Source: Candidatus Nomurabacteria bacterium RIFCSPHIGHO2_02_40_30 (GTDB taxonomy: Bacteria > Patescibacteriota > Minisyncoccia > Phycocordibacterales > UBA9973). From it: DNA of 64,000 bases. Location: positions 95,653-159,652 of the forward strand of contig MFTV01000016.1 in NCBI GenBank assembly GCA_001785445.1, written 5' to 3'. Below, in pieces: positions 994 to 51,074 of this stretch; the stretch's first letter is position 1; each line of letters begins with the position of its first letter. A model generated the notes under the pieces. The model did not search any database. It worked only from the letters and a program-made list of their open reading frames with translations, and was not told the DNA's origin. Both the position numbers and the translations under genes were made by a program.

Positions 994-2535
994 TTAAGGT
1001 TCAATTACAGATAAGATATTACCAAGCAATTGCCCTGTTGGAACGCTTAAACTTGAGAGTGACTCCACTAATTGGGCGTTGGCATTACCAGGAAGAAGAA
1101 TTATCTGAATAGTGTTGCCAGAAGCAACATCATTTGTTCCATCATCATCATAAATATCACCTCGCACTTCCACGATAACACTCTGGCTAGGCAGGAGTTT
1201 TAATGGGGCAAACGTTGCGCCTATGTCTAAATAATGGGGTTCAATGCTTTCTTCTTTCAACGAATAGGAATAAGAAATCTTAGTTCCATCAACATATAAG
1301 GCCACATTACGTAAACTATTAAGATTATCATTATTTGTTTTTAATGTTATACGAAGAGAGCCAAAACGTATCTCTTCATTAAAAGCCTCTAACTTATAAC
1401 GCGCTAAGACAACATTCGATGCGCCAGCAAGTACTGTGCCAGATGGTGAATCAGTTGATTTGGTTATGGTTAATCTTCCCGGCTCAATCGTGAATGTTGT
1501 TGCAATACTACTAATAGGTGTACCTGAAGGTGTTATTTTTTCCTTGGTATCAATTTCTACAACATTTATATCAGAACTATTTCTTAAGGAGAATTGTACT
1601 GTACGGCTATTTCCGCTTTTAATATCGCCAGTAAACCTGAAACTCACATTTCCAACACTCAATTTAATTGATGGAAAATCAAAATTGGCATAACCATTAG
1701 CATCTACAGAAGAAACGGAAGAAACAAAGTTTTCATTTATGTACAGTTTAAGATTAGAAAATGCACTAGTTTGCGCAGATCCTACATTCCGAAGTTTCAA
1801 GGAAGTTATTTCTAAATCTTTTACACCAACAGAGGCTACGGCTTCCCACAGAGTTTGTTCAATAACACCATTCTTGACTAAATTTATATTACCACCATTA
1901 TGACCTCCTGAAATAAAGGCAAGAGTTCCTATTTCTTTTTTGATTAATATTGTTGCTGGAGGAGTTGGTTTTGTACTAAAAGTAATTTCTTGATTAGCCC
2001 AGGCATTATTCGCTAGAGCAGTAATAGATCCTGTATAGGAACGACCAGCATTTAAATCTTTAATCTCCACATAATGAAGAGCGTCAACACCGTTTTTTGA
2101 TTGGTAAGCAGTTCCATTTAAAAGGAGTTTTGACTCACTTGCCATATTAGTTTGCCAGCTTATATATACAGAGGTTGTTTTAGGATCGATATTTACATTA
2201 GAGATAGACAGAGCAGCAGCTTTTGGTTCATTTATAGTTGGAGGAACTACTGGAGAAAGTGGATTGGGCTTATTTTCTTTTCCAGTTTCTTTTGTTTGAG
2301 AATTAATTGGGCTAGAAGTTTTCTTAACCGTCGGCTTACTATTTAAAATAACACCCTTCTTTTCCACTGGTTTGATAACCGGTGTTGGCTTTTGCGGCAC
2401 TTCAACTTTTATTTCCTCGACAGGTATAACTGGTTTTTTATTAAACCAAGAAAATGGGTTCCACCACGATGCTAAAGCAAATTGGGGTGATAAAAATACA
2501 ATGGAGATAAAAATTATTATTAGTGATTTCTTCAT
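994..2535 (-). CDS. secreted protein; signal peptide followed by conserved 'ASWWNPFSWF' motif, a Pro/Lys-rich linker and an FN3/Ig-like beta-rich C-terminal region
   Basis: N-terminus MKKSLIIIFISIVFLSPQFALA has a signal-peptide pattern (basic n-region, hydrophobic core). It is followed immediately by SWWNPFSWF and a low-complexity P/K/T linker. The segment 'VYISWQTN...YTGSIT' resembles a fibronectin-III fold. A paralogue is at 43309..44295. Confidence 0.6.
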   Translation of the reverse strand: MKKSLIIIFISIVFLSPQFALASWWNPFSWFNKKPVIPVEEIKVEVPQKPTPVIKPVEKKGVILNSKPTVKKTSSPINSQTKETGKENKPNPLSPVVPPTINEPKAAALSISNVNIDPKTTSVYISWQTNMASESKLLLNGTAYQSKNGVDALHYVEIKDLNAGRSYTGSITALANNAWANQEITFSTKPTPPATILIKKEIGTLAFISGGHNGGNINLVKNGVIEQTLWEAVASVGVKDLEITSLKLRNVGSAQTSAFSNLKLYINENFVSSVSSVDANGYANFDFPSIKLSVGNVSFRFTGDIKSGNSRTVQFSLRNSSDINVVEIDTKEKITPSGTPISSIATTFTIEPGRLTITKSTDSPSGTVLAGASNVVLARYKLEAFNEEIRFGSLRITLKTNNDNLNSLRNVALYVDGTKISYSYSLKEESIEPHYLDIGATFAPLKLLPSQSVIVEVRGDIYDDDGTNDVASGNTIQIILLPGNANAQLVESLSSLSVPTGQLLGNILSVIEP

Positions 2536-8246: not shown

Positions 8247-9164
8247 CTATACAGCCAAATCATTTAATGGGTGTTTTGTCATCTGCCCTCGTAGGTGTTC
8301 AGCACTAGCAGATAAGTAAATTGTAGTAGTTTTAATATCGGAGTGCCCCATCATTCGGGACAGGGAATAAATATCCACCCCACCTTCAAGCATAAGAGTT
8401 CCAAAAGTATGCCTCAATTTATGAACAGTAAAAATTATTCCGGAAGATTTACGTACTTGTTCTACTAATTTTTTTAGACCATTTTCAGTAAAACCTATAT
8501 TACCGCGCAGAGAAGAGAAAAACTCTGGGTTAGTTTTATTTAATCTCTTCCTCTCTTCCTTATACTTTTTCAAACTTTGCGCCAAAGTGTAACTAATCGG
8601 CACTACTCGATCTTTGTTCCCTTTACCTTGTCGAACAAAAATTGTTAGATTTTCTATATCTACATCGGCGAATTTTAGATTTATCAACTCCATTTTACGC
8701 AGACCAGTAAATATAAATGTAGAAAATATAGCATGGTTGCGATAGCGTAAAAATTTATATTCATAAGGGTAATTATAGACAATTTCCATTAGTCGTAATG
8801 CGGTCTGTTTAGTTAGTTTTATCGGCAATTTTCTCTCCATTTTGGGTTTTTCAATATCAAGAATTGGATTTTTTTCAAGATATCCTTGCTTCATACACCA
8901 ACGAAAAAATACCAATAAAGTTTTATGATAGACAATGAATGTATTTACCGACCATTTTCTCTCTGTCCGGCCCCAATAAAACAAATTCCTGACATTATCA
9001 TCCGTTACTTTATTGATTTCACTAACTCCTGCAATCCGACAATAACCCTTTATAACATTCTTATACCTCTTTAAAGTATTCTTTGAATACCCTTTAATAG
9101 ATGCTGAATACTCACAAAACTTCTGCGACAATATTTCGATGTCCATATCATATTTACATCTCAA
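8247..9164 (-). CDS. int: tyrosine site-specific integrase/recombinase
   Basis: C-terminal catalytic region 'HKLRHTFGTLMLEGGVDIYSLSRMMGHSDIKTTTIYL' (R..HxxR..Y). It sits directly beside the 3' end of tRNA-Lys. Confidence 0.85.
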   Translation of the reverse strand: MRCKYDMDIEILSQKFCEYSASIKGYSKNTLKRYKNVIKGYCRIAGVSEINKVTDDNVRNLFYWGRTERKWSVNTFIVYHKTLLVFFRWCMKQGYLEKNPILDIEKPKMERKLPIKLTKQTALRLMEIVYNYPYEYKFLRYRNHAIFSTFIFTGLRKMELINLKFADVDIENLTIFVRQGKGNKDRVVPISYTLAQSLKKYKEERKRLNKTNPEFFSSLRGNIGFTENGLKKLVEQVRKSSGIIFTVHKLRHTFGTLMLEGGVDIYSLSRMMGHSDIKTTTIYLSASAEHLRGQMTKHPLNDLAV

Positions 9165-9273
9165 GCAGAAAATTTATTTTTGAAGTAGTTTTTAGCCCAC
9201 GACCTGTTCACCGCGGGAGGTGGTCGTTCAAAATGACCTATTTTCCAAAATAAGCTTTAGTTTATAAACAATG

Positions 9274-9346
9274 TGCGCCCGGTTGGGATCGAACCAACGA
9301 CCTTATCCTTAAAAGGGATCTGCTCTACCGACTGAGCTACGGGCGC
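9274..9346 (-). tRNA. tRNA-Lys(TTT)
   Basis: GCGCCCGTAGCTCAGTCGGTAGAGCAGATCCCTTTTAAGGATAAGGTCGTTGGTTCGATCCCAACCGGGCGCA. Cloverleaf with a 7 bp acceptor stem, T-loop TTCGATC, anticodon loop CTTTTAA. CCA is not encoded. Confidence 0.85.
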
Positions 9347-34862: not shown

Positions 34863-35309
34863 TTAGCTAAACTCAGTCTTTAAATACTCGAAAGCTTGGT
34901 TTAGTACCTCTCTTGCTTCTGGGAAAGTTAGCAGTTGTTTTGCTTCATTATAATTAACCCATCTTAATTCAAGAATCTCCTTTTTAAAATTTTCAGGAGT
35001 CGTAGCAGTAATAGATGATACAAAACCAATAAAATACTTTGCGGATTTATTATATTGAATACTGGCTCGCTCAAAAGAATATTTTTCAATAAATGATTTT
35101 TTATCTAAAATAACATTATTAATACCTGTTTCTTCTTGCAGTTCTCTCTTGGCAGTTTCTTCTTCTGATTCACCTGCATCCTGATGCCCCTTCGGGAACC
35201 CCCAGTGCCCTTCAGCCTCGTGGATAAGACAAAAAAGAAAATTATTATTTTCTTTAAAAACTGGAATAACACCAAACGATTGTTCTTTTTTAGTTTCCAT
35301 ATTACGCAT
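34863..35309 (-). CDS. NUDIX hydrolase
   Basis: Nudix box 'GHQDAGESEEETAKRELQEETGI' (GX5EX7REUXEEXGU). Confidence 0.85.
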   Translation of the reverse strand: MRNMETKKEQSFGVIPVFKENNNFLFCLIHEAEGHWGFPKGHQDAGESEEETAKRELQEETGINNVILDKKSFIEKYSFERASIQYNKSAKYFIGFVSSITATTPENFKKEILELRWVNYNEAKQLLTFPEAREVLNQAFEYLKTEFS

Positions 35310-35919
35310 TCACCTTCGGACGGTATTGTATTGCCTCTAGGATATGATTACTTTCAACCTCTGGAGAATTTTCAAGGTCGGCGATAGTGCGGGCAATTTT
35401 TATGACGCGGTGATACGCGCGGGCCGAAAGCCCGAGGTGCTCGGCACTGTCGTCCAGTAAGTCGCGCACTTCTTTCTTCAATTTCACCATGGTCGATAAA
35501 TCTTTCACATTCATCTCACTATTGGTAGCTATGTCTCGGCCCAGTTTCTTAAATCTTTCTTTCTGACGCACACGGGCACCTATAACCCGCGCTTTTATTT
35601 TCTCGCTATGCTCGCCCGTTCCCTCCTCACCTAGTTTTTTATAATCCACATTGCCGACAGACACCCAGATGTCGATACGGTCTATTATTGGTCCGGAGAG
35701 TTTTCTTTTATATCTATCAAGGTCGGAAGGTTTACATATGCAAGCTTTTTTCTTGCTGCCAGCATTGCCGCAAGGACATGGATTCATCGCGGCTACTAGA
35801 ATAAAATTTGACGGGAAAATCGCCGAACCTTTAGCGCGAGAAATCGAAACAATATTGTCTTCAAGCGGTTGCCTCAATGATTCGATAACCCTCTTTTCAA
35901 ATTCCGGAAATTCATCCAG
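35302..35919 (-). pseudogene. comM: 3' (C-terminal) fragment of comM/yifB (Mg-chelatase-like ATPase) separated from its 5' half by a 15 kb insertion
   Basis: The translation resumes at 'LDEFPEFEKRVIESLRQPLEDNIVSISRAKGSAIFPSNFILVAAMNPCPCG'. This is the ComM segment that normally follows Walker B 'GVLFLDE'. There is no ATG; the ORF track begins it at TTG. Confidence 0.8.
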
Positions 35920-35978
35920 GATAGTTGTCTCACAAATAGTCATAAGTAAGTTTATAAACAAAGGAAAAACCTTGATTA

Positions 35979-36593
35979 TTAAGACGATTTTACTCTTTTT
36001 ACTTCTATTGTTCCATAGTTGTTTCTATCCCTACCTGAATAATAATCCCCAGTTAAAGAGTCCGTTTCAGCATTGTAAGTAAGTTTTGTTGAACCCTCGT
36101 GTATAGCCATTGTGGACACCGCGTCATACTCTGGTTCATTTCTGAAAAAGTAAAAGAGTGCAGTTTTATTGTCTATTTCACTCCTACCAAAATTCTCATG
36201 TATGCTAACTGATTTTGATTTGTTAAAAATACCATGTATTTTTATTTTTGTTGCAGTCTGTTTAATCACAAGTTGAGCATCTATGTTGGTTGCAAATTTT
36301 TCATAGGAAGATTTTACAATGCCAATCCACTTACCATTCAAGTCATCTGCTATAACAAGTCCAAGCGATTTAAACATTTTTAGTTTCCATAGATACTTAT
36401 CAAAAAGAAAGAAAAGGAATACATATATTGCAGGGACAGAGGGTATTGAGATAAAAATCTGCATAGAAACTGGTAATTGACTTATATACTGACTAAAAAT
36501 AGAAAAAATCAAATAAGCCAAAAGAGTACTAACACTTATTAGGACAACAATGAGGACAGTAAAGATTTTATAGTTGTTTGTATTTATATTCAT
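35979..36593 (-). CDS. 2TM membrane effector-like protein (Cap15 / S-2TM-beta-like)
   Basis: Two N-terminal TM helices (IFTVLIVVLISVSTLLAYLIF; IFISIPSVPAIYVFLFFLF) followed by a ~130 aa beta-rich soluble domain. It lies 7 bp downstream of the nucleotidyltransferase gene. Confidence 0.5.
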   Translation of the reverse strand: MNINTNNYKIFTVLIVVLISVSTLLAYLIFSIFSQYISQLPVSMQIFISIPSVPAIYVFLFFLFDKYLWKLKMFKSLGLVIADDLNGKWIGIVKSSYEKFATNIDAQLVIKQTATKIKIHGIFNKSKSVSIHENFGRSEIDNKTALFYFFRNEPEYDAVSTMAIHEGSTKLTYNAETDSLTGDYYSGRDRNNYGTIEVKRVKSS

Positions 36594-36599
36594 AAAAAG

Positions 36600-37514
36600 T
36601 TAGATAGTATTCCAGTTATCCCATAAGTTTACAAGTGCGTTGATTGTTGTGTTTGCGTCTGTTATGTTCCATTGATGTTTTGAAGTACCAAAAAGTTGAT
36701 GTTGATTACTCTGTGTTACGAAACTGCTTATGTCATGTTCGTTGAGATACTTTAGTATATTAAAAACTGCTGTGTTGTTATCTCCAGTAAACATTTCATT
36801 CGGTACATTATAAACTAAACTTTGTAGAAAATATGAAGGGGCAGTTTCTTCTGACAAAAGACCCTTTTCAACGGCATAAGACCTAGCATTTTTAATAATG
36901 CGTACAACTCTCTTAAATAGATTTGAAGTTGCTTGATGTTTAGCAACTCCATTATTGTAGTGTTGGTCAGGATAATTTATTATTGTCTCTCCTGTTGCCT
37001 TATGATTAAGTAATATCCCTTCTACTTTTGAGTGATTATGTAATCCTAAAAAATATGAATATGTCCGATGTGCAATGACTGGAACAATGTCTGCCTTAAG
37101 ACGACCAGAATTTTTCAATAGTTTTATAGATTTATTACCAGTTTCATCTATAAAAGCATTCCCATAGTAGGCCTTTAGGGCAATAAGTACATCTCTGCGT
37201 AAATGAGCCAAAATGTAATCTGCAGTAAAGTAGGTTTGTTCGTGTAATAAATATTGTTCTCTGGGTAATAATAACTTGTTTGACTGAAAGACATCCAATC
37301 TAACAAGAACATCAACATCACTATCCCCTCTGGTATTTGTATCGTTTGCATATGACCCCTGTAGGTCAATTTTTACCTTGCCTGATGTTATCATTTCACG
37401 GATAGGCGAACTACTACCACTTAGGGCATTCCTAACTGACTGATATGTTGTACTTGAAAGGTCTTTTGACCCCTGTTTTGCCCAAGTATCTAATTGGTTT
37501 GCTGGTATAGACAT
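36600..37514 (-). CDS. CD-NTase/SMODS-like nucleotidyltransferase (pol-beta superfamily)
   Basis: 'DLQGSYANDTNTRGDSDVDVLV' fits GS-x(9-13)-[DE]h[DE]h, and a later 'KADIVPV' supplies a third acidic residue. At 304 aa it is far larger than minimal MNT toxins. Confidence 0.5.
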   Translation of the reverse strand: MSIPANQLDTWAKQGSKDLSSTTYQSVRNALSGSSSPIREMITSGKVKIDLQGSYANDTNTRGDSDVDVLVRLDVFQSNKLLLPREQYLLHEQTYFTADYILAHLRRDVLIALKAYYGNAFIDETGNKSIKLLKNSGRLKADIVPVIAHRTYSYFLGLHNHSKVEGILLNHKATGETIINYPDQHYNNGVAKHQATSNLFKRVVRIIKNARSYAVEKGLLSEETAPSYFLQSLVYNVPNEMFTGDNNTAVFNILKYLNEHDISSFVTQSNQHQLFGTSKHQWNITDANTTINALVNLWDNWNTI

Positions 37515-37674
37515 ATCTATAAGTGGAGTTTACCCCTATGTAATAAATAAATCAAACTTATGTGGATAAAGTTGAAAAAAGTAATGAAACTGTTAACTTA
37601 CTTACTTGATTTTTTAGAAAAAAGGAGTATATTCTCATTTATATAGAAACCGTGTAAAAATTATTTTAATTATT

Positions 37675-38043
37675 ATGAAGCTCAAAAAAGTAAAAATGTC
37701 AGACATACAGGAAGGACCAATAAGACATCTAACTTTGCCTGATGGCTTTATCCAGCGTGTAAAGGAGTTCAAGCAAGCATTAGCCGAGGTTGAAAAAACA
37801 TCACTAGAAAGCACACTTGAAAACTTTCAAAGAGATACAAACCCTGAAAATGAACTAAGGGTATGGGAAAAAATAGCATCAACTTATCAATGGGCTGTAA
37901 TAGACAATGTTGGGCTTATAGAAGCAGAAAAAAAGGATGTCTTTGGTATCTTGCTTGGTTTATCTATGGGTATGAAGGATTTTAGTAATTTCAAGAACTT
38001 GAGTAAAGAAAAAGTTGCTGAAGTTGTTAGTCATTTTTCATAA
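37675..38043 (+). CDS. hypothetical protein (122 aa)
   Basis: Intact ORF on the opposite strand, between the NTase and the recombinase. Confidence 0.4.
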   Translation: MKLKKVKMSDIQEGPIRHLTLPDGFIQRVKEFKQALAEVEKTSLESTLENFQRDTNPENELRVWEKIASTYQWAVIDNVGLIEAEKKDVFGILLGLSMGMKDFSNFKNLSKEKVAEVVSHFS

Positions 38044-38185
38044 AAATACGAAAGCAATTATTTTAGCAAGCGAGTCAGATAAAAATCAGAGTTCAAATGT
38101 ATCTCTTAATCTAATAAAAGGGTGTTGCGTGATTCTGTGTTCACATCTCGTGAATGTTTCTTTATTAGTTGGTGGTCTATACCAT

Positions 38186-39976
38186 CTATAAAACAAATGT
38201 CTTAGGAAAATACATTAGAGGGTTTAATTTGATTATCTGTTGTCTTCTTTCCGTTTCAGAAATCGTCTTTAAGTCTAGTATAAGTGGGAATGACTCTTTT
38301 TGTTCTTGTGAAACTCCGTTAACTAAACTAATGTTTGTTGTCTTCGTATAACTGGGGAACCTGAAAACAACATTAACATAATCCTCTTTTGCATAGAGGG
38401 TAATTCGTTCAATGAATAGAAATACGATTTTTTGCTTTTCTTCATACGAAACATTTTCTAGTCTATTTTTTATTTGTTCGTATACTTTTTTAAGAGACAC
38501 CTCTCTTTCTTCTTTTTCTTTTTTAGTAGTAGACAACTGGTGTAAATGTATCGTTTCATCCTTGAGTTTTTGTTCGTCATTTTTATATTGACTAACATAC
38601 ATTTCATATTGTTTTTTAGAAATCTGTCCATTCACATAAAGTTCATTGGCTCTGTCTCTCTTTTCACTGATTGAAGATGACTCAGTTTCAATTTCTGTTA
38701 ATCGTATTTTAGTTAACTTGGGGTTTTCTGTTTTATAGATGTATTGTTTTAACGGATGAAACATATTTTGTGGATTTTTGAGTATTTCTTTTAAACAATA
38801 CCAGATGGGTTCTAATCTTGCCTCAGAGTATTGAGGACACCACTCACATCTTTTTGTAGTGCCAACAGCGTCATCTTTTCTATAAATACCATGATAGTAT
38901 CTTCCATTACCGTGCTCCCAGTTTTTTCGTGGGGGTTGAAACCCACTAAACATCTTATAATTGCATTTACCACAATAGATAAGTTTTGAATACAAATACT
39001 CTCGTTTCTGATTTCTTTTTGAAAATTCCCTATTTCTCATTAGTTGTTGTTTTGCGAGTTCAAAAGTTTCTGGTGAAATAACCACGGGTGTTTCTATTTG
39101 TACCCAGTCTTCTTTTGGTCTCAATTTATTTTTATCTGTTATACTTGTAAGATTGTTAAAAGGTCTCTTGTATTTTCTATAATAGAAAACTCCAGTATAA
39201 ACTTCGTTAGTTAAAATTCTTCCTATCGTTCGTTTATACCAATAGTTGTTAGTGGTTCGTTTTTTGACTTTAGTAAAATACGGAGTGGGTATTTTCATTT
39301 GGTTCATTCTTCTCTCTAATTCATTTAGAGACAATCTTTCGTCAATGAGCCATTTAAAAAGTTTCTGAACTATTTTTACTTCTTCTGGAACAAGAAGAAG
39401 TTTTTTTGTTTTTTTGTCAACTTTAAAACCAAAAGGAGGCACACCAGTCACCCACTTTCCTGCTTTAGCGGCACATAATTTTCCATTTGATGTCCTTTCT
39501 CTGATAGTTTCTCTTTCCATTTCTGCGACAGCTCCTAAAAGAGTAGTCATAAATTTTCCTGTACTACTTGTAGTATCAAATGCTTCAGTTGTTGAACGGA
39601 AACCAACATTATAATTTCCAAGAAGTTCAATGGCTCCCAGTAATAATGTGGTCTTTCTAAAAAATCTATCTAATCTATAAACAAGAACAACATCAAACTC
39701 CTTGTTTTGTGCGTCAGTAAATAATTGTTTTAGTTGTGGTCTAGAATCAACGGGTAAAGTACCAGAAAAACCTTCTTCAGAATAGATGTGTTTTTCTTCT
39801 AAAGAATAATCTTGAGACTGGACAAAGGCGAGTAGTTTTTCTTTTTGTACTTCAAGTCCGTATCCTGAAATTTGTTCCCCTGTCGATACTCGGAGATACA
39901 AGGCGACTCTTATTTTATTTTTTGTTTCAGTTTCCATTTTCATAATTCTTTTGACGACAGAGTTTAAAGAGTTCAT
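38186..39976 (-). CDS. large serine recombinase (probable start ~39943/39937)
   Basis: Resolvase-type N-terminal catalytic domain 'IRVALYLRVSTGEQ' with catalytic Ser. Large recombinase C-terminal domain with Cys-rich zinc ribbon (CGKCNYKM...C..C). Confidence 0.9.
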   Translation of the reverse strand: MNSLNSVVKRIMKMETETKNKIRVALYLRVSTGEQISGYGLEVQKEKLLAFVQSQDYSLEEKHIYSEEGFSGTLPVDSRPQLKQLFTDAQNKEFDVVLVYRLDRFFRKTTLLLGAIELLGNYNVGFRSTTEAFDTTSSTGKFMTTLLGAVAEMERETIRERTSNGKLCAAKAGKWVTGVPPFGFKVDKKTKKLLLVPEEVKIVQKLFKWLIDERLSLNELERRMNQMKIPTPYFTKVKKRTTNNYWYKRTIGRILTNEVYTGVFYYRKYKRPFNNLTSITDKNKLRPKEDWVQIETPVVISPETFELAKQQLMRNREFSKRNQKREYLYSKLIYCGKCNYKMFSGFQPPRKNWEHGNGRYYHGIYRKDDAVGTTKRCEWCPQYSEARLEPIWYCLKEILKNPQNMFHPLKQYIYKTENPKLTKIRLTEIETESSSISEKRDRANELYVNGQISKKQYEMYVSQYKNDEQKLKDETIHLHQLSTTKKEKEEREVSLKKVYEQIKNRLENVSYEEKQKIVFLFIERITLYAKEDYVNVVFRFPSYTKTTNISLVNGVSQEQKESFPLILDLKTISETERRQQIIKLNPLMYFPKTFVL

Positions 39977-40205
39977 CGTTGGTTAAGACCTCAATTCTTT
40001 CGGTCTTTAGGGTAATAAGTTCATTGGTCAACTCCTCCCTAGAAAGGGTCTGTATTCTTTGAATCTCATCTGAGATTAAACAATCTTTAAGTTCTGTGGT
40101 GTCATTCATATTTTTTGAAAACAATACTGTGTGTGTCTTACAATAAGTTTCCTTATGCATATTGTTATAGGTGTGTATATAAAAGTACAACAAATATGTT
40201 AACAA
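39927..40205 (-). CDS. small hypothetical protein upstream of recombinase (possible recombination directionality/regulatory protein)
   Basis: ORF overlapping the recombinase start in another frame. The real start is likely internal (MNDTTELK...). No motif. Confidence 0.3.
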   Translation of the reverse strand: MLTYLLYFYIHTYNNMHKETYCKTHTVLFSKNMNDTTELKDCLISDEIQRIQTLSREELTNELITLKTERIEVLTNDELFKLCRQKNYENGN

Positions 40206-40313
40206 CTGATGAGACCATTAGAACGATTGGTTGTTTTTGACCTACTGATGTGTGCAAAATTTTAGTTCTATATATAGATTGCATAGTTGCAACGATGAGT
40301 ATTAAGTAAGTAT

Positions 40314-42170
40314 TTATTCAAAAAGGTGTTCCATCTCTTCATCCTCTTCGTCTATTTTTACGATTTCTTCATCGATTTCAATAGTAGATTTTGTAATGGA
40401 CTCTTTTGGTGTTGTTAATTTTTCGTCCTCTCTGGGGAGTCTGTAAATGTTTCTCTTTCCTGACTTGTCGACCACTATCTTTTTCTCTTTTGTTAGTTCT
40501 TTAAGTGCATCTACAACATTCCTCCCACCTGCTTGTGCTTTTACTGCTTCTTGTAATGCTTCCTTTATGTGTGGACCATCCTCCAGTACGATTAAGATAG
40601 CCATTTTTGCATTTTCTTTTTTGCTTTTTTCCTCTTCAATTTCTTGATAATCCCCTAAAGATACTTTTCCGTCTACTTCAATCAACTTCACACTAAAGGG
40701 GTCAGCTGCTTTACTTCGTCTTGACTTCACATGCTCAATTTCCATAATAAACGCTTTTGTATTTTTTTTATCTTTTTTAACTGTTATGTGTGAATCTAAT
40801 CTTCCTGAAATAGCAGACGAACCACGAAGACTTTGTGCTCCTTTTGGTTGTCCGATTCCATCTTTTCTGTGGTGATGGATAAATAAAACAGAAGCACCTA
40901 CTTTATTTATTTCTTGCATAGCTTGCATAATCTGTTCTGCTTGTTCAGCACTATTTTCTTCTTTTGAATGTAGTGCTGCGAATGGGTCAAACATAACCAA
41001 AGAAATATTGTTTTGTTGAACTATGTTTTTAAGTTGGTCTAAGTCTTTTCTATTATCAATTTTGAAGTGTTGAAGAATACTAAACATAATTGGTAAATCT
41101 TTTTTGAATGACATTCTTTCTATTCGTCTTTTTGTCTCACCCTCACCTGACTCTTCATCAACAAGAAGTATTTTTCCAGTCATAGTTTCAAAATGGTCAA
41201 ATACTTTTTTACCTGATGCTATTGCTTTAGCAATATGCAACATTACCCAACTTTTTCCATGACTTGGTTGTCCTGAAAGAGCAATAATGCCTTGCCTTGG
41301 GATAAGTGGATTGACTAAAAATTCCTGTTCTTTGGTCTCTAGTTTTAAAACATCACTAACAGAAAGTATTTTTATCAATCGTTGTTCCGTGTTTTCGGGT
41401 TCTTTCCCATCTTTTCTTTGTTTTCTTTGAGATTCTGCAAGACTCTCGAAAACTTCAAATAAGTGTTTGTCTTCTAATGGTGGATTGTTGTTTTTGTTCC
41501 ATGACTGGACTAACGGGAAACAAAAAGTAAACCAATCCTTTTCTGAATATTGGTATAACAATTTTCCAGAAATTCGAGTTAAAACATCATGACGAGAACC
41601 TGTCTCAACTCCACTAAATAGAACATCCCATTTTTGGTCTGACTGGTTGTGATTTTGAGTTGTCTTTTTTTCGTCAAGAACCATCCACTTTGGAACTTCA
41701 GCAAGGGGTAGTTTGTCTAAATCAATTTCCCATTCGTAATGATTCCCAGATAGATGAAGAGATGGGGGGACAACTATGTATCCCCCATCACCTCTAATAT
41801 CTATTTTACGACCCAAAATACGAGTGGCATTTTTTATACCAGTCTCAGGATATTTGAAGTAGAAATGTTTCCCTCCCCCTCCAGATTTCACAGTCGGGGT
41901 GTTTGGTATCTCTAATCCAGTTGTATCTCCGTCATGTTCAACATCTAAAACAACTATCCCAGAAATTTTTCCTGTCACTAATGCAATACCATCTGGGATA
42001 TTGTTCTTAAACCATGATTCTATTTCTTCTTTACTGGCTTGTCTTTCTTGATACTCTTTCCAAGACGACAAGAGTGGTGTTTTGTCTCTTTTGATGGGGA
42101 TAACAGAGAGCCCCTTTTCTTGAAGTCGGAGAGCGGCCTGAAGTAGAACACTTCTTTTTTTTGTTTGCAT
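40314..42170 (-). CDS. bifunctional primase-polymerase (Prim-Pol) N-terminal domain fused to RecA-like/DnaB-like helicase (AAA_25-type) replication protein
   Basis: N-terminal 'GLSVIPIK...GIALVTGKISGIVVLDVEHDGD...GGGGKHFYFKY...DIRGDGGYIVVPPS' is a prim-pol signature. Central P-loop 'LSGQPSHGKSW' and 'ILLVDEESGEG' are also present. Confidence 0.75.
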   Translation of the reverse strand: MQTKKRSVLLQAALRLQEKGLSVIPIKRDKTPLLSSWKEYQERQASKEEIESWFKNNIPDGIALVTGKISGIVVLDVEHDGDTTGLEIPNTPTVKSGGGGKHFYFKYPETGIKNATRILGRKIDIRGDGGYIVVPPSLHLSGNHYEWEIDLDKLPLAEVPKWMVLDEKKTTQNHNQSDQKWDVLFSGVETGSRHDVLTRISGKLLYQYSEKDWFTFCFPLVQSWNKNNNPPLEDKHLFEVFESLAESQRKQRKDGKEPENTEQRLIKILSVSDVLKLETKEQEFLVNPLIPRQGIIALSGQPSHGKSWVMLHIAKAIASGKKVFDHFETMTGKILLVDEESGEGETKRRIERMSFKKDLPIMFSILQHFKIDNRKDLDQLKNIVQQNNISLVMFDPFAALHSKEENSAEQAEQIMQAMQEINKVGASVLFIHHHRKDGIGQPKGAQSLRGSSAISGRLDSHITVKKDKKNTKAFIMEIEHVKSRRSKAADPFSVKLIEVDGKVSLGDYQEIEEEKSKKENAKMAILIVLEDGPHIKEALQEAVKAQAGGRNVVDALKELTKEKKIVVDKSGKRNIYRLPREDEKLTTPKESITKSTIEIDEEIVKIDEEDEEMEHLFE

Positions 42171-42209
42171 AACATATTTTTTTACTAAAGATAAACTCTA
42201 ATACTAAAA

Positions 42210-42566
42210 CTACTTTTTAGTTTGAGTATTATTAAACCAATAATAAGTTTTGTGGGTAAATTTAGCCTCTAAGGGATTAAACTTACCTGAACAAGTAAAC
42301 CGAGTAATAAAATCAGTCATTTGAATAAACATTGTTATCTTCTTTTTTGGTATGTCGTAACGACATCTAAGAACAATTTCTTCTTTGTCTTTCAAGCCAC
42401 TAACATGTCCAGTGTTTATCGACTCTGCACTTATTTTTCTTTCCACAATAGATTCTAATTCTTCACAAATATTTTCCATGCTGTCTTGAACCGCCACTCT
42501 ATATTTGTCTCCAGGTTGTCTAGTATTCTTCAGACTTATATCTCTTACTTTATTTATTTTTTTCAT
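42210..42566 (-). CDS. hypothetical protein (118 aa)
   Basis: Intact ORF with no motif. Confidence 0.4.
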   Translation of the reverse strand: MKKINKVRDISLKNTRQPGDKYRVAVQDSMENICEELESIVERKISAESINTGHVSGLKDKEEIVLRCRYDIPKKKITMFIQMTDFITRFTCSGKFNPLEAKFTHKTYYWFNNTQTKK

Positions 42567-43308
42567 CTTCTAATTCGTTATCACTTATAATTTCGCTGGA
42601 TTTTATTTCATCTGACGATAAAATAAGCTGAAAGAAAGCATTAAATACTGCAGATATTTCTTGCTCAATTTTTTTATCATTTTTAGACATAGAAAAGGCC
42701 AGCTACAAGATTGTGCCTAATACATTGAATTTTTGAGTATGACCACTACTACAAAAAATAAATGCCAAGCAAATCTTTTTTTGCAGTTTTTTTTGGTAGA
42801 GTGAGAATGTCACCGCTGGTTCGACCTGAAGCGACAACACAATTTAGATTAAACTGACTACATATTAAGTATGGCATGCAGAAATACCAAAAGTGTCAAA
42901 ATAAGATATAAAAAAAGAGAAAAGTAAACAAGAAATAAAAAACTCTTATTTTTAAAGACTCTTTTGGATTTATATAACAGTATGTTGATTACTTGTCAAT
43001 TTTTTTGACACTTTTTTAGCCCTTTTGAGCAAAAAAGGCTACACAAAAATGACCCAGTTTTAGTAAAAAATTGTATGGATATAGAATACCACCTCTTTCA
43101 CGGGGGAAGGCCTCTAAAAGGACTCTAGAATGGCCAGACACCCAATTAGGGTGTTGGTTGTCCTAGTTTATACATGTGCATGCTAATCCAAAACACAGTT
43201 CTATAAACTTTACTATATAAACTCGTAAATCATTATGAATCTCGTAGAAGCTATAATGGGTTGCTACTCGTAGCGTCGTACACAATTTTTCCATTAAAAA
43301 TCATTCAG

Positions 43309-44295
43309 TCAAGGAATTAAATAGACCGAGTACTCTAATTGCCTTCTTGCATCTACATCTCCTGGTTGAACACAATTAAAATCATCCTGATTATCAATTC
43401 CAATCGTGACGATATGAACCCCTGTTGAACTATTACTCACATCGAGAGTGAAAGTATTCTCAAGTGAAAAGACCTTCCAACCAGACTCACTAGACCAGTC
43501 GGCTGGTGTATCATGTGTAAAGTAGACAGGAAGTCCTTGTGGGTCAGTAGCTGTTATCTCTAATGTGATAGAGTTAACTGTCCCCTTAGCGAAACCGCCT
43601 CTAATGCCAAAACCTTGAAACGGATAATTGCCAACATTGCCAAGACTATCTTTAATCATAGTAATCTTTGGACAATGAAGTTCTTTGTAAGTTAATGGGG
43701 GCGTAGGTGTTGGAGTTGGAGTCTGTCTTTTTCTAGTTATAATTGCAGGAGGAGTAATTGGAGTTATGCTTGGTATAACAAGAATTGTGTCGTTGCATGA
43801 CTTACCAGTTATTGAACTAAACTTATTGCCTGAATCACACCCTGCATTTACTGGAAGTACCTGACTTGAAGTTGAATTATCAATAATAACAGGCGGTGCA
43901 GTACATGGTCCCACTATTGGGCATGGTCCCACCATAACTCCAGGACTTGCTCCACCACCTGCGCTACTGGAGGGGGTAGTCAATGTTGTTGGTTTTGTTG
44001 GAGTGATTTGTTTTGATGTAGACTTAGTGTCCTGTTTTTCTTTTTTGAGTACAACTTTTTCTTTTTCAACTTTTTTATCATTAACGGAGTTAGTAGTTGG
44101 AACAGAAACTTGAACTACTGGAGGTTGAACAACTTGTTTTTTAAACCATGAAAACGGATTCCACCAAGAAGCAAAAGCAATAGAGGGAGTTAAAAATACT
44201 ATTAAAAGTAGACACAAGGAATATCTTTTCATAAAATTATTTAAGACAAAAATTGCTAATAATTCCATGAATGGGAAACAAAAAGCCCACCACAT
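43309..44295 (-). CDS. secreted protein with 'ASWWNPFSWF' post-signal motif (paralogue of 994..2535); likely start at ~44232 (MKRYSL...)
   Basis: 'MKRYSLCLLLIVFLTPSIAFASWWNPFSWFKK' is a signal peptide plus the same motif. It is followed by a P/T/S-rich linker and a C-terminal globular domain. Confidence 0.6.
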   Translation of the reverse strand: MWWAFCFPFMELLAIFVLNNFMKRYSLCLLLIVFLTPSIAFASWWNPFSWFKKQVVQPPVVQVSVPTTNSVNDKKVEKEKVVLKKEKQDTKSTSKQITPTKPTTLTTPSSSAGGGASPGVMVGPCPIVGPCTAPPVIIDNSTSSQVLPVNAGCDSGNKFSSITGKSCNDTILVIPSITPITPPAIITRKRQTPTPTPTPPLTYKELHCPKITMIKDSLGNVGNYPFQGFGIRGGFAKGTVNSITLEITATDPQGLPVYFTHDTPADWSSESGWKVFSLENTFTLDVSNSSTGVHIVTIGIDNQDDFNCVQPGDVDARRQLEYSVYLIP

Positions 44296-44490
44296 GGGTA
44301 GAGACCGAAGTCTCTCATATTAGTTTCCTAATATGGCCTGACGGACACCCCATATGATGGGTTCTTTATGTCCGTCAGGACTCTTTCACCATGCTATTGA
44401 AAAATCAATAGTTTAGGCTACTTTTAAAATATTCAGTTGTATCTATATAGTATTACTTGTCTAAAGAAATGTAAAATAAAGAGGTCATAA

Positions 44491-45309
44491 CTACATGATA
44501 AGAGTTGATAATTCCTTTGCATTATTGAGTGGTAATGATAGATATAATGCCTTTTCTGATTTGCCTGCTTGTACCATCTTTTTTAATGTAAAGTTTTGCG
44601 AGAAGAAGTTTTTATCAATATATCCAACTATGTATGCTTTTCGAGTTGATATATCAATATAAATTCTTACATAAAAAAAACGCATATTGATTTGCTCTTC
44701 ATTGCGCATTTTTAATATACACTCAGAATTAGATAAACAATTAAAACTCCTGTATGTTTTACAAAAATTTATATAGTCCATCAAATTGTTTATTTTATCA
44801 AATTCATCTACACGGAGATATTTAGGGTACTCAAGAAAATCATCACTCATGATAATACTAGAGATGTTCTGGTCACTGCTTCCTGTTCTTTTGTGCCGCT
44901 CTGCAACTCTTGTAGATTTTATTTCAACCGTATAAATACCATTACTTTCAAGACCAATTTTTGTCCCATCACTTATCTTCCCATAGTCACTATTTTTAAC
45001 CTCATAATTGATTTGTTCTATATATTTATTAACTATTGATTGGTCTTTATTTGATACGAATATTATTCCATCAAAAGGAGCATGCTTTTCAAAATTATTA
45101 GACCTAAACTCATCATACGATAAGTATTTATAATTCGGAAAATTCTGAATTATAAATTCCTTAAACACTTTTTCAGCAATTTTACCTAGTGATGTATCTG
45201 AAGCTTTTTCTTCGTTAGAACGACCTAGTTGCCATGTATTTGCTGTGTTTTCAACAATCTTTTTGAAACTACCAGAATTGTTAATTGTTATATCATTAAT
45301 TATTATCAT
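44491..45309 (-). CDS. hypothetical protein co-transcribed with type III res; possible PD-(D/E)xK fold
   Basis: Overlaps the res stop by 4 nt. 'PFDGIIF...YEVKNS / VEIKST' weakly resembles a PD-ExK nuclease core. Confidence 0.4.
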   Translation of the reverse strand: MIIINDITINNSGSFKKIVENTANTWQLGRSNEEKASDTSLGKIAEKVFKEFIIQNFPNYKYLSYDEFRSNNFEKHAPFDGIIFVSNKDQSIVNKYIEQINYEVKNSDYGKISDGTKIGLESNGIYTVEIKSTRVAERHKRTGSSDQNISSIIMSDDFLEYPKYLRVDEFDKINNLMDYINFCKTYRSFNCLSNSECILKMRNEEQINMRFFYVRIYIDISTRKAYIVGYIDKNFFSQNFTLKKMVQAGKSEKALYLSLPLNNAKELSTLIM

Positions 45310-47849: not shown

Positions 47850-47854
47850 AATTT

Positions 47855-49846
47855 TTACGCATTTACTTCAAATGTCTCAAAGTATTCTTCCCCAAGCACA
47901 TCTACAATCTTGATTGCGACAGTGTATTTACCTTTCTTTTGGTACTCCCACGAATACTTGGCTTTAATAATTTCTTTCTTGTCTGGCAGGTCTATCACTT
48001 CAGCATTAAATAATTTGCTGTTATAATCCACGTCAATAGCAACACTATCAATGATTTGCTTGAAGTCATTAACTTTTGTTTTATGCTCTTTCTTGAGTAC
48101 CTTCTCGTTTTCAATCTCTAGCTTTCGCATTAGTATAGGAGAATAAAAATCATTGAGCTCAACAGTAAGCTTTTTATCTTTCACTTTCATTTCAATTTTC
48201 GCTTCTGGTTTTTTCTTAAAGATAAGGTTTTTCTTATCAGTCAAAATATCTCTAACTTCAATTTTAACACCCGTCTTGTTTTCCTTCTTAATAAAATCCA
48301 TTACATCAAGTTCCATTCCTGAACAAACAACGAGTACTCCTTCTTCGTAAACTGCATCTCTTGCTTTTGATTTTATCTTCACAGTAAAGCTATCTAGTTT
48401 ATCTCCTATACTCTTGAGCATTGTGCGAATGTCCATCTTGTTTAAAACTCGATTAAGAGACATTATCTTAACAAAGTTCTTGTCTAAAACACCATCAAAG
48501 TAAATTCGCTTTACTGGTTCTATCCCATACATCTCCATCACGATTTCTTTTGCCTCAAGCTCGTTTTTAAACACATCATAATCGTTCACATTGAGTATTT
48601 TGAAACCAAGTGAACCTTTAAAGTTCTTTGTTTTTTCTTTTTGCTGGTCTGTAATAATTTGACCGAGCCGTTTTGTGCTTGTTTGTATTGCCCCTATGTT
48701 AATATCGCACCCTATCCATCGTCGTCCGAGCTTCTGTGCAACAGCACAAGTAGTACCAGAGCCGAGAAAGAAATCCGCAACAAGGTCTTTCTCATCTGAG
48801 GATGCTTCTATTACTCTTTTGAGTAAAGCTTCAGTTTTTTGTGTCGGATAACCTGTATCTTGACCTGGAGTCGTACCAAGTCCTGCTATATCTTCCCATA
48901 TATTATCCACGGCTCGTTCTGCAATATATTTACTCCCCTTCTTTTTTAGATAATACTTCACACCAACACTACCACCATTACTACAAGAAACTGTTTTCGT
49001 CTCTTCATTAAAAACAACTTTACCACCAAAAGGCGCATATAGACGTCCTTCTTTATGAAGTTTTTTCAGTGTCTCAAAGCCAGAAGAACCTGGGTCAGAG
49101 GAATGGAAATACCCTCCCTCATCTTTCCTATACTCACTCGCCGCTTCTTCTTCCGTTAGCTTTGTTTCTTTCTTTTGAGAATGCCAAGTCGTTGGATACT
49201 TTTTATTTTTTGCATAGATGTTTAAAAAATGTGTACTATAAGCATAATAAAAAGCATTGACCTTTGCCCCACGAGCAACCTGACTTCTCCATGAGATAGT
49301 ATTTAAATAGCTGTCCTCACCAAAAACATCATCTAATAAAAGTCGTATATGATGTTCTTTTCTATGGTCGCAGTGAACATATATTACCCCCTTTTCCGAA
49401 AGAAGTTCTTTCATAAGAAGGATGCGCTCATACATAAACTGCAAGAACTCGTCATTTGCCCAAATGTCGGAATATTGTTTTTCTTCTAGCAAGCCTTGTT
49501 GTATACCCTCTATTTTCTCCCCTCGTATTTTCACACGCCTCACATACTCTGCTTCACTAGCAAATGGAGGGTCAATGTATATCAAATCAACCTTACCACG
49601 ATAGTTCTTTAAAAGGTGAGAAAGGACTTGGAGATTATCCCCCCAAAATAGTTTGTTGAAATCCTCTGCACTCTTATCGCCATACACCTCAGTTTCTTGT
49701 GCAGGATAAAATTGTACACCCTCAAGGGGTTTTTTACCTACCCACTGGAGAAGCGGACGACCTTTTGCTTGTTCTACTTTTTGATACTGTTGTTCTTTTT
49801 GATTTTTCATAACATTTTTTTCACTCTTACATTCCATAAATAGCAT
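47855..49846 (-). CDS. mod: type III R-M Mod subunit (beta-class N6-adenine DNA methyltransferase)
   Basis: Motif IV 'DLIYIDPPF' precedes motif I 'DFFLGSGTTCAVA'. Lies 5 bp upstream of res. Confidence 0.8.
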   Translation of the reverse strand: MLFMECKSEKNVMKNQKEQQYQKVEQAKGRPLLQWVGKKPLEGVQFYPAQETEVYGDKSAEDFNKLFWGDNLQVLSHLLKNYRGKVDLIYIDPPFASEAEYVRRVKIRGEKIEGIQQGLLEEKQYSDIWANDEFLQFMYERILLMKELLSEKGVIYVHCDHRKEHHIRLLLDDVFGEDSYLNTISWRSQVARGAKVNAFYYAYSTHFLNIYAKNKKYPTTWHSQKKETKLTEEEAASEYRKDEGGYFHSSDPGSSGFETLKKLHKEGRLYAPFGGKVVFNEETKTVSCSNGGSVGVKYYLKKKGSKYIAERAVDNIWEDIAGLGTTPGQDTGYPTQKTEALLKRVIEASSDEKDLVADFFLGSGTTCAVAQKLGRRWIGCDINIGAIQTSTKRLGQIITDQQKEKTKNFKGSLGFKILNVNDYDVFKNELEAKEIVMEMYGIEPVKRIYFDGVLDKNFVKIMSLNRVLNKMDIRTMLKSIGDKLDSFTVKIKSKARDAVYEEGVLVVCSGMELDVMDFIKKENKTGVKIEVRDILTDKKNLIFKKKPEAKIEMKVKDKKLTVELNDFYSPILMRKLEIENEKVLKKEHKTKVNDFKQIIDSVAIDVDYNSKLFNAEVIDLPDKKEIIKAKYSWEYQKKGKYTVAIKIVDVLGEEYFETFEVNA

Positions 49847-49936
49847 TGTAAGAAATTGATAATGGCTTCCGTTATTCCTAGTATTCAGTATATTATAGTT
49901 TCAAGTATTTATACATATTTCCATATTAAGCTTCTA

Positions 49937-49976: not shown

Positions 49977-50028
49977 TATTTTAGTCAGTTTTTTTATTAG
50001 TTTTTAACCTTTTAAGAACTAATACAAA

Positions 50029-50475: not shown

Positions 50476-50493
50476 TTTACAAAATTTTTATTG

Positions 50494-51045: not shown

Positions 51046-51074
51046 AACATAGGCCTGTTTTTTTTATTACTTTT

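Follow-up and report, generated by a model that had tools for sequence, protein, structure and literature searches.

Short peptide signatures are placed on exported proteins by several described systems. Gram-positive lipoproteins combine a short motif at the cleavage site with a disordered tether, and retain diverse exported passengers at the membrane surface. LPXTG/sortase, SrtB NPx[TS]x, PEP-CTERM, PGF-CTERM and MYXO-CTERM are C-terminal sorting tags that put one short signature on many unrelated surface proteins of a lineage. The YSIRK-G/S, KxYKxGKxW and Bacteroidota lipoprotein export signals each mark a subset of surface proteins through a variant of the Sec region, the last with its information just past the cleavage site. 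Trp-rich juxtamembrane, interfacial or terminal membrane-targeting segments occur in the HIV gp41 MPER, FtsA and MinD, and Trp belts at the ends of transmembrane (TM) segments are well established. A W-x-N-P-x-x-W segment lies inside M56 (BlaR1/MecR1), a polytopic membrane protease. Finally, the 'Pam' pilus of CPR bacteria uses donor-strand exchange via N-terminal strands located behind Sec signal peptides, and the paper that describes it mentions no Trp motif (bioRxiv 10.64898/2026.03.03.709456).

Two genes of the window, i.e. the whole 64,000-nucleotide stretch of Nomurabacteria DNA that was analysed, carry an N-terminal cassette that is reminiscent of these systems. Both open reading frames are present where the original prediction placed them, and both lie on the minus strand. 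Their parts are as follows.

994..2535, minus strand: P1, exported surface protein of 513 aa (ORF read directly)
2470..2535, minus strand: P1 signal peptide, residues 1-22, with MKK, a hydrophobic core, P17 and A20-L-A22 (direct reading and position statistics)
2443..2469, minus strand: P1 motif S23-WWNPFSWF31, predicted N-terminus of the mature protein
2212..2442, minus strand: P1 stalk, residues ~32-108, K/P/V/T-rich and disordered (AF2 pLDDT)
997..2211, minus strand: P1 passenger region, one Fn3-like domain (residues ~110-190) and two more beta-sandwich domains
43309..44232, minus strand: P2, exported surface protein, 307 aa with MKRYS as its start (the listed ORF extends to 44295)
44170..44232, minus strand: P2 signal peptide, residues 1-21, with MKR, a hydrophobic core, P16 and A19-F-A21
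44143..44169, minus strand: P2 motif S22-WWNPFSWF30, predicted post-cleavage tag
43699..44142, minus strand: P2 stalk, residues ~31-178, beginning KKQVVQPPVVQVSVP, with a Cys-containing GPCPxVGPC segment and mostly disordered
43312..43698, minus strand: P2 C-terminal beta-sandwich passenger, residues ~179-307 (pLDDT >90)

P1 is a 100% match to hypothetical protein A2W67_01105 of Candidatus Nomurabacteria bacterium RIFCSPLOWO2_02_40_28, and its N-terminus reads MKKSLIIIFISIVFLSPQFALA up to the predicted cut and SWWNPFSWFNKK behind it. The corresponding halves of P2 (ORF 43309..44295) read ...MKRYSLCLLLIVFLTPSIAFA and SWWNPFSWFKKQ; translation most likely starts at 44232, because the orthologues P0010-P0012 begin with MKRYS, and the 21 codons upstream are probably non-coding. 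The AF2 models give pLDDT values below 50 for residues 14-104 of P1 and for most of residues 46-160 of P2, consistent with the low-complexity linker that had been proposed to follow the motif in both proteins. In these models the motif itself is a low-confidence, irregular segment undocked from its own passenger, as expected of a linear motif that acts in trans. The passengers are unrelated Ig/Fn3-like beta-sandwich domains. Foldseek returns generic Ig/Fn3/S-layer/adhesin matches for P1 (best E 5e-6) and weak CARDB/S-layer matches for P2 (E>=1e-3), so that the C-termini resemble generic surface domains (Ig/Fn3/CARDB-like), and the initial suggestion of a phage receptor-binding type is not supported. 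The two proteins had also been called paralogues with differing C-terminal domains; the difference is borne out, whereas the paralogy is not, as only the modular N-terminal cassette (signal peptide, motif and K/T/P/E-rich disordered stalk) is common to both.

The W/F-rich stretch behind the two signal peptides is indeed identical, although it extends over 10 residues (ASWWNPFSWF) rather than the nine first reported, and it directly follows the A-x-A site in P1 and P2. In the six-frame translation of the window it occurs in these two proteins only, and a degenerate DNA pattern of the motif gives 2 matches against 0.00 expected from 100 shuffles. Seven of its codons allow a synonymous change, and at five of these the two DNA copies differ (gca/gct, tcg/tct, aac/aat, cca/ccg and tct/tca); the copies share no DNA similarity past what the amino acids force. 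The synonymous differences rule out a recent duplication, gene conversion or other recent DNA copy, and the identity of the motif is therefore held at the protein level by selection.

The features of a Sec/SPase I signal peptide are all found in the two N-termini (MKK/MKR start, hydrophobic region, helix-breaking P, small residues at -3 and -1). Among the 174 homologous N-termini examined, WW starts exactly one residue past A-x-A in every case. Relative to the cut between A and S, P stands at -6 and A at -3 (82%) and -1 (100%), which counted from WW corresponds to P-7 (100%), A-4 (82%) and A-2 (100%); residue +1 is S (96%), A (2%), V, Q or T (1% each) and never Cys, and the tag columns are W100, W97, N99, P100, F82, S/T99, W100 and F73 (%). 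Patescibacteria genome matches that adjoin a signal peptide keep the same one-residue spacing, and in the complete genes that the genome scan gave for Patescibacteria and DPANN the tag begins at residue 23-31. Among homologues the tag is constant, and both the linker and the hydrophobic signal-peptide core vary. The motif is conserved and fixed in position, and the outcome that would have spoken against the original prediction, a common signal-peptide sequence with no enrichment at this position, is therefore not what was observed. The full layout of these proteins is a basic start, hydrophobic core, P-x-x-A-x-A, one residue and W-W-N-P-F-[S/T]-W-F, followed by a lysine pair or a second aromatic cluster, a K/T/P/E/V-rich disordered stalk of 60-160 residues, and a variable passenger. 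An extended form, SWWNPFSWFNGWTFHK, places aromatics at the alternating positions 1, 5, 7, 11 and 13. Some proteins carry a second copy of the tag ~36 residues downstream, and in orthologues devoid of the tag (P0022, P0026) the stalk is missing as well.

Read from these positions, the precursor would be cleaved by an SPase I-type cut between A and S, so that the tag would remain on the mature protein and form its N-terminus. The same positions bear on a reading in which the signal peptide is not cleaved and serves as an N-terminal membrane anchor, with WWNPFSWF as an aromatic belt and helix-terminating turn at the outer interface. Trp belts are typical of TM ends, AF2 runs the signal-peptide helix of P2 on to residue 23, and the tag is found directly behind hydrophobic helices in M56-like proteins and before them in RHS toxins. 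Nevertheless, conservation of a textbook SPase I c-region to this degree is hard to explain without cleavage, and the tag is also found at the very C-terminus of proteins and as a second, internal copy where no TM helix is adjacent, such that we consider an uncleaved anchor improbable.

The claim that the motif belongs to no described system holds against the classes of signal compared. A lipobox (L-[AS]-[GA]-C) is dismissed by the lack of Cys at +1, and a Tat signal by an n-region of MKK, MKR or MKN with no twin arginine. Type IV prepilin and archaeal class III signals do not fit, as the conserved site lies behind the hydrophobic segment and a G/F..E (slash, cut) is missing. Tags for exosortase, archaeosortase, rhombosortase or myxosortase would require a C-terminal signature with a TM helix and an Arg/Lys cluster, which is missing, as is any NCBIfam match. 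Sortase signals (LPXTG, or NPx[TS]x for class B) are rejected because the tag lies at precursor residues 23-31 or ends 0-4 residues before the stop codon, and a hydrophobic span behind it is missing. A signal of the class B sortase type, cleaved and wall-linked, merits separate mention, since NPF[S/T]W superficially matches NPQTN/NPKTG and sortases are reported in CPR genomes; however, the tripartite C-terminal layout of motif, hydrophobic span and basic tail is absent, and this assignment is barely credible. More broadly, the tag shares with the C-terminal sorting tags its occurrence on many unrelated surface proteins, but it is mostly N-terminal and no cognate enzyme was found. YSIRK-G/S, KxYKxGKxW and the Bacteroidota signal differ from the WW tag of Patescibacteria and DPANN in both sequence and lineage. 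Neither Pfam nor NCBIfam has a model for the N-terminal region, NCBIfam gives no match to P1 or P2 at E<=1, and a full-text literature search on the motif and on Patescibacteria signal peptides returned nothing relevant.

We infer that the tag acts as an anchor or sorting signal. The explanation that we tentatively prefer, at slightly short of an even chance, is that it is a self-contained, non-covalent envelope tether for Sec-exported surface proteins, most likely at the membrane interface. The tag would hold its passenger to the cell envelope through the flexible stalk, most likely because its aromatic residues (three Trp, two Phe) would partition into the interface on the outer side of the cytoplasmic membrane. 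It would then be a functional analogue of the lipid anchor and linker of Gram-positive lipoproteins, with neither Cys nor lipid; it differs from that anchor in its A-x-A SPase I site, in that no lipid modification is expected, and in its occurrence at C-termini and as internal repeats. Both surface retention and the membrane as binding partner are what we infer. On the Wimley-White interfacial scale the free energies of SWWNPFSWF add up to about -6.7 kcal/mol, and the two copies rank 4th and 5th by interfacial energy among the 17,157 nonamers of the long ORFs of the window; the three nonamers above them are one hydrophobic segment and two from the probably non-coding extension of P2. This favourable energy, and an aromatic cluster beside a TM segment or at a terminus, recall the MPER, FtsA and MinD, whereas the tag is only 7-8 residues long, extracytoplasmic, not amphipathic and far more sequence-specific (WWxPx[ST]W). 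Hydrophobic moments at 100 and 170 degrees, calculated for the tag and for the sequences that replace it in some DivIC proteins, are no higher than those of shuffles. The idea of an amphipathic helix or strand was dropped on this basis, and the result also weighs against a tether. A peripheral anchor of eight residues is weak for a monomer, and the second copy that some proteins carry may be needed for avidity.

The occurrence of the tag in other protein contexts provides further evidence on its function. In Patescibacteria DivIC (PF04977), the order is TM segment, coiled coil, linker, basic residues and WWxPx[ST]W at the external C-terminus, which is the anchor-plus-stalk arrangement in mirror image and favours the tether. 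In the DivIC orthologues, which were fetched without use of the motif and thus form an unbiased sample, the core is W-W-x-P-x-[S/T]-W, with W1, W2, P4, [S/T]6 and W7 nearly invariant, and R, T or S tolerated at position 5. Three of 30 distinct DivIC tails replace the tag after WW, two of them with a hydrophobic 15-mer (IPILKGILAGILENL) and the third with WWASLQNVYDSIIGK; the exchange for a hydrophobic segment again favours a tether. The same holds for large Fn3/LysM proteins and small SAR116 lipoproteins, in which the tag is also C-terminal (in C-terminal cases at a distance of 0-4 residues from the stop codon and not followed by a hydrophobic span). In Firmicute and Planctomycete RHS toxins the tag opens the toxin domain 2-5 residues past the Rhs_assc_core domain and is directly followed by a Gly-rich TM-like segment; in phage tape-measure proteins it is internal; and in Bacteroidota M56/BlaR1-like proteins WWNPFVWF directly follows a hydrophobic helix and aligns to IIMSYNPLVHIVKRK of S. 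aureus BlaR1 (8exp), where the segment is part of the protease and no terminal tag. This recurrence beside TM-like segments, beside a hydrophobic helix and in tape-measure proteins argues for a tether, as do the fixed position, the protein-level selection, the modularity and the diverse extracytoplasmic passengers. On the other hand, simple membrane partitioning would not need conservation this strict, which suggests that the tag adopts a defined conformation or binds a specific partner. The charges that flank the tag are basic in Patescibacteria and acidic in DPANN and SAR116, and so fit no single electrostatic model.

A serious rival is a specific recognition peptide in place of a lipid-binding one, which a conserved envelope protein would read as a signal for docking or sorting, with diverse passengers mounted on one scaffold. 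That protein could be a receptor whose groove takes up the tag as an added strand, in the manner of donor-strand exchange pili, a component of an S-layer or pilus, or a dedicated processing enzyme. In its favour, W-W-x-P-x-[S/T]-W is nearly invariant in the motif-independent DivIC set, P and S/T included although neither is hydrophobic, R, T or S can stand at position 5, the spacing to the cleavage site is fixed, and many unrelated passengers stand under the tag, as with known sorting tags. The alternating aromatics of SWWNPFSWFNGWTFHK would suit a beta-strand, and the tag is not amphipathic. A donor-strand-exchange pilus has been described in CPR (bioRxiv 10.64898/2026.03.03.709456), in which a short post-Sec N-terminal segment on Ig-like proteins could similarly dock into another subunit; unlike in such chaperone-usher-like pilins, the tag and the Ig-like domains are set apart by a long disordered stalk, and no acceptor, chaperone or operon was found. 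Neighbour clustering (~4 kb, 31 loci) revealed only recombinases and small unknown proteins as recurrent neighbours of motif genes. The co-occurring peptidase or transporter that the original prediction proposed to look for is not among them, nor is a receptor, and no candidate partner of the recognition peptide was found within this range. A common partner is also unlikely given that the octapeptide is found in proteobacterial lipoproteins, Firmicute/Planctomycete RHS toxins, tape-measure proteins and archaea, and the tag repeatedly abuts membrane segments. We regard the recognition peptide as possible, if rather unlikely. More doubtful is the wider proposal that W-W-x-P-x-[S/T]-W marks a sorting/attachment system so far undescribed and common to the two radiations of ultra-small episymbionts, Patescibacteria and DPANN archaea, in which a conserved envelope component or host surface would recognise the tag and so display fast-evolving, mobile-element-borne surface proteins, with tape-measure proteins and RHS toxins making use of this recognition to engage membranes. 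Should there be a dedicated partner that recognises the tag, the sorting system would be a new one, on a par with the sortase and exosortase families.

The cassette is widespread. A 36-position profile matches 1,741 cluster representatives at E<=1e-3, nearly all at residues 1-36, and as profile and pattern searches favour exact motifs, degenerate variants are under-sampled in these counts. The 44-residue N-terminus used as query gave no match owing to a word-index limit, the identical protein being in the database. More than 130 of 146 passengers have no Pfam domain, and those with a match (fn3, Pur_ac_phosph_N, Trypsin_2, LysM, thioredoxin and NosD) are of types that are usually extracytoplasmic. 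DPANN archaea have the same motif behind signal peptides. Two sets of hits were set aside, namely P0055 (8 profile matches), a translated repeat array that is probably an artefact, and a Nitrospira family (36 loci) with the motif internal to a conserved protein, which was treated as an unrelated occurrence. A large part of microbial diversity belongs to Patescibacteria and DPANN, which live attached to other cells; little has been described of how they display and retain surface proteins, and most of the proteins they secrete carry a hypothetical annotation. A tag readable from sequence would identify the members of more than 1,700 protein clusters as probable surface-tethered proteins and give a handle on the surface proteome involved in host contact, and as a simple peptide it lends itself to lipid- or partner-binding tests.

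Both genes had been assigned to mobile elements. The relevant features of the window are listed below.

35962..51074, no strand assigned: integrative element of ~15 kb that splits comM and contains P2 (cargo genes and split comM halves)
35302..35961, minus strand: comM C-terminal half (Mg_chelatase profile positions 111-206 and Mg_chelatase_C)
51075..52103, minus strand: comM N-terminal half (ChlI and Mg_chelatase profile positions 1-116)
38186..39976, minus strand: large serine recombinase of the comM element, a gene class that recurs beside motif genes elsewhere
8247..9346, minus strand: tyrosine integrase (8247-9164) adjoining tRNA-Lys (9273-9346), which marks an island

The assignment is correct for P2, which lies inside the comM element. 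P1 is 5.7 kb from the tyrosine integrase that adjoins tRNA-Lys, whereas its position inside the island is unproven, as a direct repeat of the tRNA-Lys end bounding the island was not found and the left boundary was not located. The association of motif genes with mobile elements is general: a large serine recombinase lies within 0.3-4 kb at 11 of 31 related loci compared with 0 of 102 other loci. Such numbers could also suggest that the tag is functionless, and that the cassette is a constant 5' region kept alike by mobile-element recombination that swaps variable 3' parts. In agreement with this, both window copies are in or near integrative elements, and identical N-termini carry shuffled C-terminal domains. 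Against it stand the synonymous differences and the lack of DNA similarity between the two copies, and cassette exchange cannot account for a tag that is kept in the housekeeping gene divIC, in archaea and at C-termini, which makes this reading very unlikely. The cargo of the comM element comprises, besides P2 and the large serine recombinase, a CBASS cyclase with a 2TM/Cap15 effector, Prim-Pol/AAA_25 and a type III restriction-modification system, and the link of tagged proteins to elements with defence systems (CBASS, Iet, restriction-modification) suggests a role of these elements in surface remodelling, e.g. exclusion or adhesion.

Two exported proteins, P1 and P2, carry the tag WWNPFSWF one residue after the predicted signal-peptide cleavage site:

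994-2535, minus strand: P1, 513 aa, beginning MKKSLIIIFISIVFLSPQFALA before and SWWNPFSWFNKK after the predicted cut
43309-44295 as listed, minus strand: P2, beginning MKRYSLCLLLIVFLTPSIAFA before and SWWNPFSWFKKQ after the predicted cut

The start of P2 likely lies at 44232, since its orthologues P0010-P0012 begin at MKRYS. The 21 codons upstream (44233-44295, minus strand; MWWAFCFPFMELLAIFVLNNF), themselves very aromatic, are included by some database gene calls (P0009, P0019, P0053) and are probably non-coding. In agreement with the original prediction, both open reading frames contain a common W/F-rich motif, and ASWWNPFSWF is identical between them, with no further copy in a six-frame translation of the window; a degenerate DNA pattern for the motif gives 2 matches versus 0.00 expected. 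Of the seven synonymously variable codons of the motif, five differ between P1 and P2, which rules out a recent DNA copy as the origin of the identity and indicates that it is maintained by selection on the protein. P1 has an identical counterpart in Candidatus Nomurabacteria bacterium RIFCSPLOWO2_02_40_28, annotated there as a hypothetical protein.

AF2 models reveal a common layout in which signal peptide and tag are followed by a long low-confidence stalk and then by beta-sandwich domains. In P1, residues 14-104 are modelled at pLDDT <50, ahead of an Fn3-like domain (110-190) and a further pair of sandwiches. The P2 model has a signal-peptide helix at residues 3-23 that leads into an irregular tag (pLDDT ~60) and a stalk largely disordered over residues 46-160; its C-terminal domain (180-307) attains pLDDT >90. 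The passengers, i.e. the domains C-terminal to the stalk, are unrelated, as their predicted difference implied; P1 and P2 therefore have in common an N-terminal cassette (signal peptide, tag and stalk) and are not the paralogues initially proposed. Fold searches with both passengers returned generic Ig/Fn3, S-layer and adhesin matches only, and the suggestion of phage receptor-binding-like domains was not borne out. Directly upstream of P1 (2550-2899, minus strand) lie two small single-TM, paired-cysteine proteins (~49 and 62 aa) for which no family match was found. Between P2 and the gene upstream (44325-44400, minus strand) is a stable hairpin whose stem pairs perfectly over 12 bp (GUCCUGACGGAC/GUCCGUCAGG; MFE -27.4 kcal/mol, z = -4.4 versus shuffles), with no T-run after it.

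Among P1 homologues, found via the passenger domains, [SAV]WWNPF[ST]W is kept directly after A-x-A while the stalk diverges, and two have an altogether different N-terminus. P2 homologues likewise keep the tag; those free of it (P0022, P0026) are also without the stalk. The motif thus holds a fixed place in homologues and is not merely common signal-peptide hydrophobic sequence unenriched at this position. Among homologues, the P2-type cassette precedes three or more different C-terminal regions. That the cassette is a functionless recombination module is very improbable. Of 1.84 billion cluster representatives, a 36-position profile built from 27 N-termini picked out 1,741 proteins at E<=1e-3, of which 203 reach E<=1e-10; nearly every match spans target residues 1-36.

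Residue frequencies in 174 N-termini, a sample biased to close matches, numbered from the first W.
-7: P 100%
-6: S 91%
-4: A 82%
-2: A 100%
-1: S 96%
+1 to +4: W 100%, W 97%, N 99%, P 100%
+5: F 82%, L 10%, I 6%
+6: S 87%, T 12%
+7: W 100%
+8: F 73%, K 16%

Beyond +8 the sequence is variable, the following 60 residues comprising K 14%, T 12%, V 9%, E 9% and P 8%. In a wider genome scan the tag spacing is unchanged and the signal peptides are more varied. In some proteins the tag comes twice, the second time as W[WFL]NPx[ST]W and 22-38 residues past the first. By Pfam, more than 130 of 146 representatives have no domain, the remainder containing fn3, Pur_ac_phosph_N, Trypsin_2, LysM, thioredoxin, NosD and similar domains. 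The 401 aa database protein P0055, with seven WWQPFSWL repeats inside a longer tandem repeat, probably arises from translation of an array of DNA repeats rather than being a real relative.

Scanning one genome per species for WWNPFxWF gave at least 119 matches, against a chance expectation that we estimate at roughly 10. Among the matches listed, 35 immediately follow a signal peptide (31 in Patescibacteria, assigned by record titles of which three name no lineage, 3 in DPANN archaea and 1 in a gammaproteobacterium), 15 occupy the extreme C-terminus, 6 open RHS toxin domains and 36 belong to a single Nitrospira family with an internal motif; others listed comprise BamA/POTRA, M56, further internal motifs and ~10 short out-of-frame chance matches. 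The DPANN loci are genuinely archaeal, one (L018) encoding TBP and an ATP-dependent ligase and another (L117) prefoldin. In the Nitrospira family (loci L002, L003, L007 and 33 others), the internal WWNPF[TS]WFGSR (..VKYVKERVWWNPFTWFGSRADSGRCGPFQDRL..) is an unrelated globular context of the same octapeptide.

The C-terminal class in Patescibacteria consists of DivIC/FtsB-like proteins (PF04977) with an N-terminal TM, a coiled coil and the tag at the external C-terminus. DivIC orthologues were recovered from metagenomes by query patterns that excluded the motif (REQGLY[QK]K, plus a stretch close to the TM) and provided 30 distinct tails: 26 keep [K/R]..W-W-[N/K/D]-P-[F/W/T/R/L/S]-[S/T]-W, often with W as the terminal residue, three are substituted after WW (IPILKGILAGILENL twice, ASLQNVYDSIIGK) and one is a frameshifted copy (L148). 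These motif-independent tails point to W-W-x-P-x-[S/T]-W as the core. Outside Patescibacteria, the class comprises large secreted Fn3/LysM proteins and small SAR116 lipoproteins. Three lipoproteins of 59-71 aa (loci L090, L112 and L114; SAR116 and other Pseudomonadota) combine an N-terminal lipobox with an acidic linker and terminate in the octapeptide WWNPF[ST]WF, and so, judging by sequence, could be anchored through both termini. TIGR03696 (Rhs_assc_core) was scanned in four of the six RHS loci and in all four stops 2-5 residues short of WW, so that the tag opens the variable toxin domain, which is released through autoproteolysis; Gly-rich TM-like segments follow the tag. Two phage matches are tape-measure proteins (PHROGs), where the tag stands immediately ahead of a GG..G..GEFV-type segment, and the other phage matches fall in S/G/T-rich linkers of large proteins without assigned function. 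In these phage proteins (L128:11869-14892, L131:3719-5185, L120, L121 and L130), WWNPF[ST]WF lies in linkers that are disordered.

The cassette has the sequence characteristics of an SPase I signal peptide, and an uncleaved signal anchor is improbable. It lacks the hallmarks of lipoprotein, sortase, exosortase-type, prepilin and Tat signals, as the original prediction had stated for lipobox, prepilin and sortase, and a sortase B signal is scarcely credible. The tag is best described as a putative terminal surface-tethering peptide. In presumed function it comes nearest to lipoprotein anchors and Trp-rich juxtamembrane segments, in concept to lineage-specific sorting tags, and no description of the motif was found in the databases or literature searched; that the motif denotes a truly novel sorting system is rather doubtful. 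A tether is suggested by the recurrent order of anchor, stalk and passenger, mirrored at C-termini, by the extracytoplasmic position of the tag at termini made by proteolysis (SPase I, RHS) and adjoining membrane segments, and by a computed interfacial free energy of ~ -6.7 kcal/mol. Of the mechanisms considered, we tentatively favour partition of the tag into the outer membrane interface, at somewhat less than even weight. The strict conservation of P and S/T, together with a position 5 that is sometimes polar (DivIC tails), and the lack of amphipathicity count against a purely physicochemical anchor. As these traits would suit a definite fold or a dedicated binding partner, a docking or sorting signal read by such a partner is retained as a lesser possibility; however, neighbour clustering of 31 loci found no partner gene near motif genes, and no sign of the co-occurring peptidase or transporter initially considered. 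The uncleaved anchor, the functionless cassette and the sortase B signal are all less likely than the membrane-interface and docking readings.

The mobile context proposed for both genes holds for P2, which lies inside the comM element, and in part for P1, which is 5.7 kb from a tyrosine integrase adjoining tRNA-Lys; the far end of this island was searched for and not found.

51075-52103: comM N-terminal half
35302-35961: comM C-terminal half
35962-51074 (~15 kb): comM element, between the comM halves, carrying P2
36600-37514: type I CBASS cyclase, comM element
35979-36593: Cap15/2TM CBASS effector, comM element
comM element: large serine recombinase and Prim-Pol/AAA_25
45306-47849 (Res) and 47855-49846 (Mod): type III restriction-modification, comM element
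50494-50958: SprT/U49-like protein (weak match), comM element
7020-8135, minus strand: IetA (AAA ATPase; PADLOC E 3e-91)
4655-7018, minus strand: IetS (subtilase; PADLOC E 8e-67)

The IetA/IetS anti-phage pair lies between P1 and the tyrosine integrase, directly beside integrase and tRNA-Lys. A 32 nt segment that overlaps tRNA-Lys in its 5' part recurs after a further 41 nt (9325-9397; 75% identity), possibly as the relic of a tRNA or of a former attachment site. In neighbour clustering of the matches listed, a large serine recombinase lies 0.3-4 kb away in 11 of the 31 Patescibacteria signal-peptide-adjacent loci and in 0 of 102 other loci, a control that is not matched for taxonomy. Surface proteins with the tag thus often travel on integrative elements in Patescibacteria. 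Small conserved proteins of 83-107 aa without assigned function (e.g. MRGGYRENAGRKQGFS..) recur between the serine recombinase and the tag gene (fam2 at loci L030, L067, L081 and L011; fam10/11 at L083 and L106), and could belong to the core gene set of these elements.
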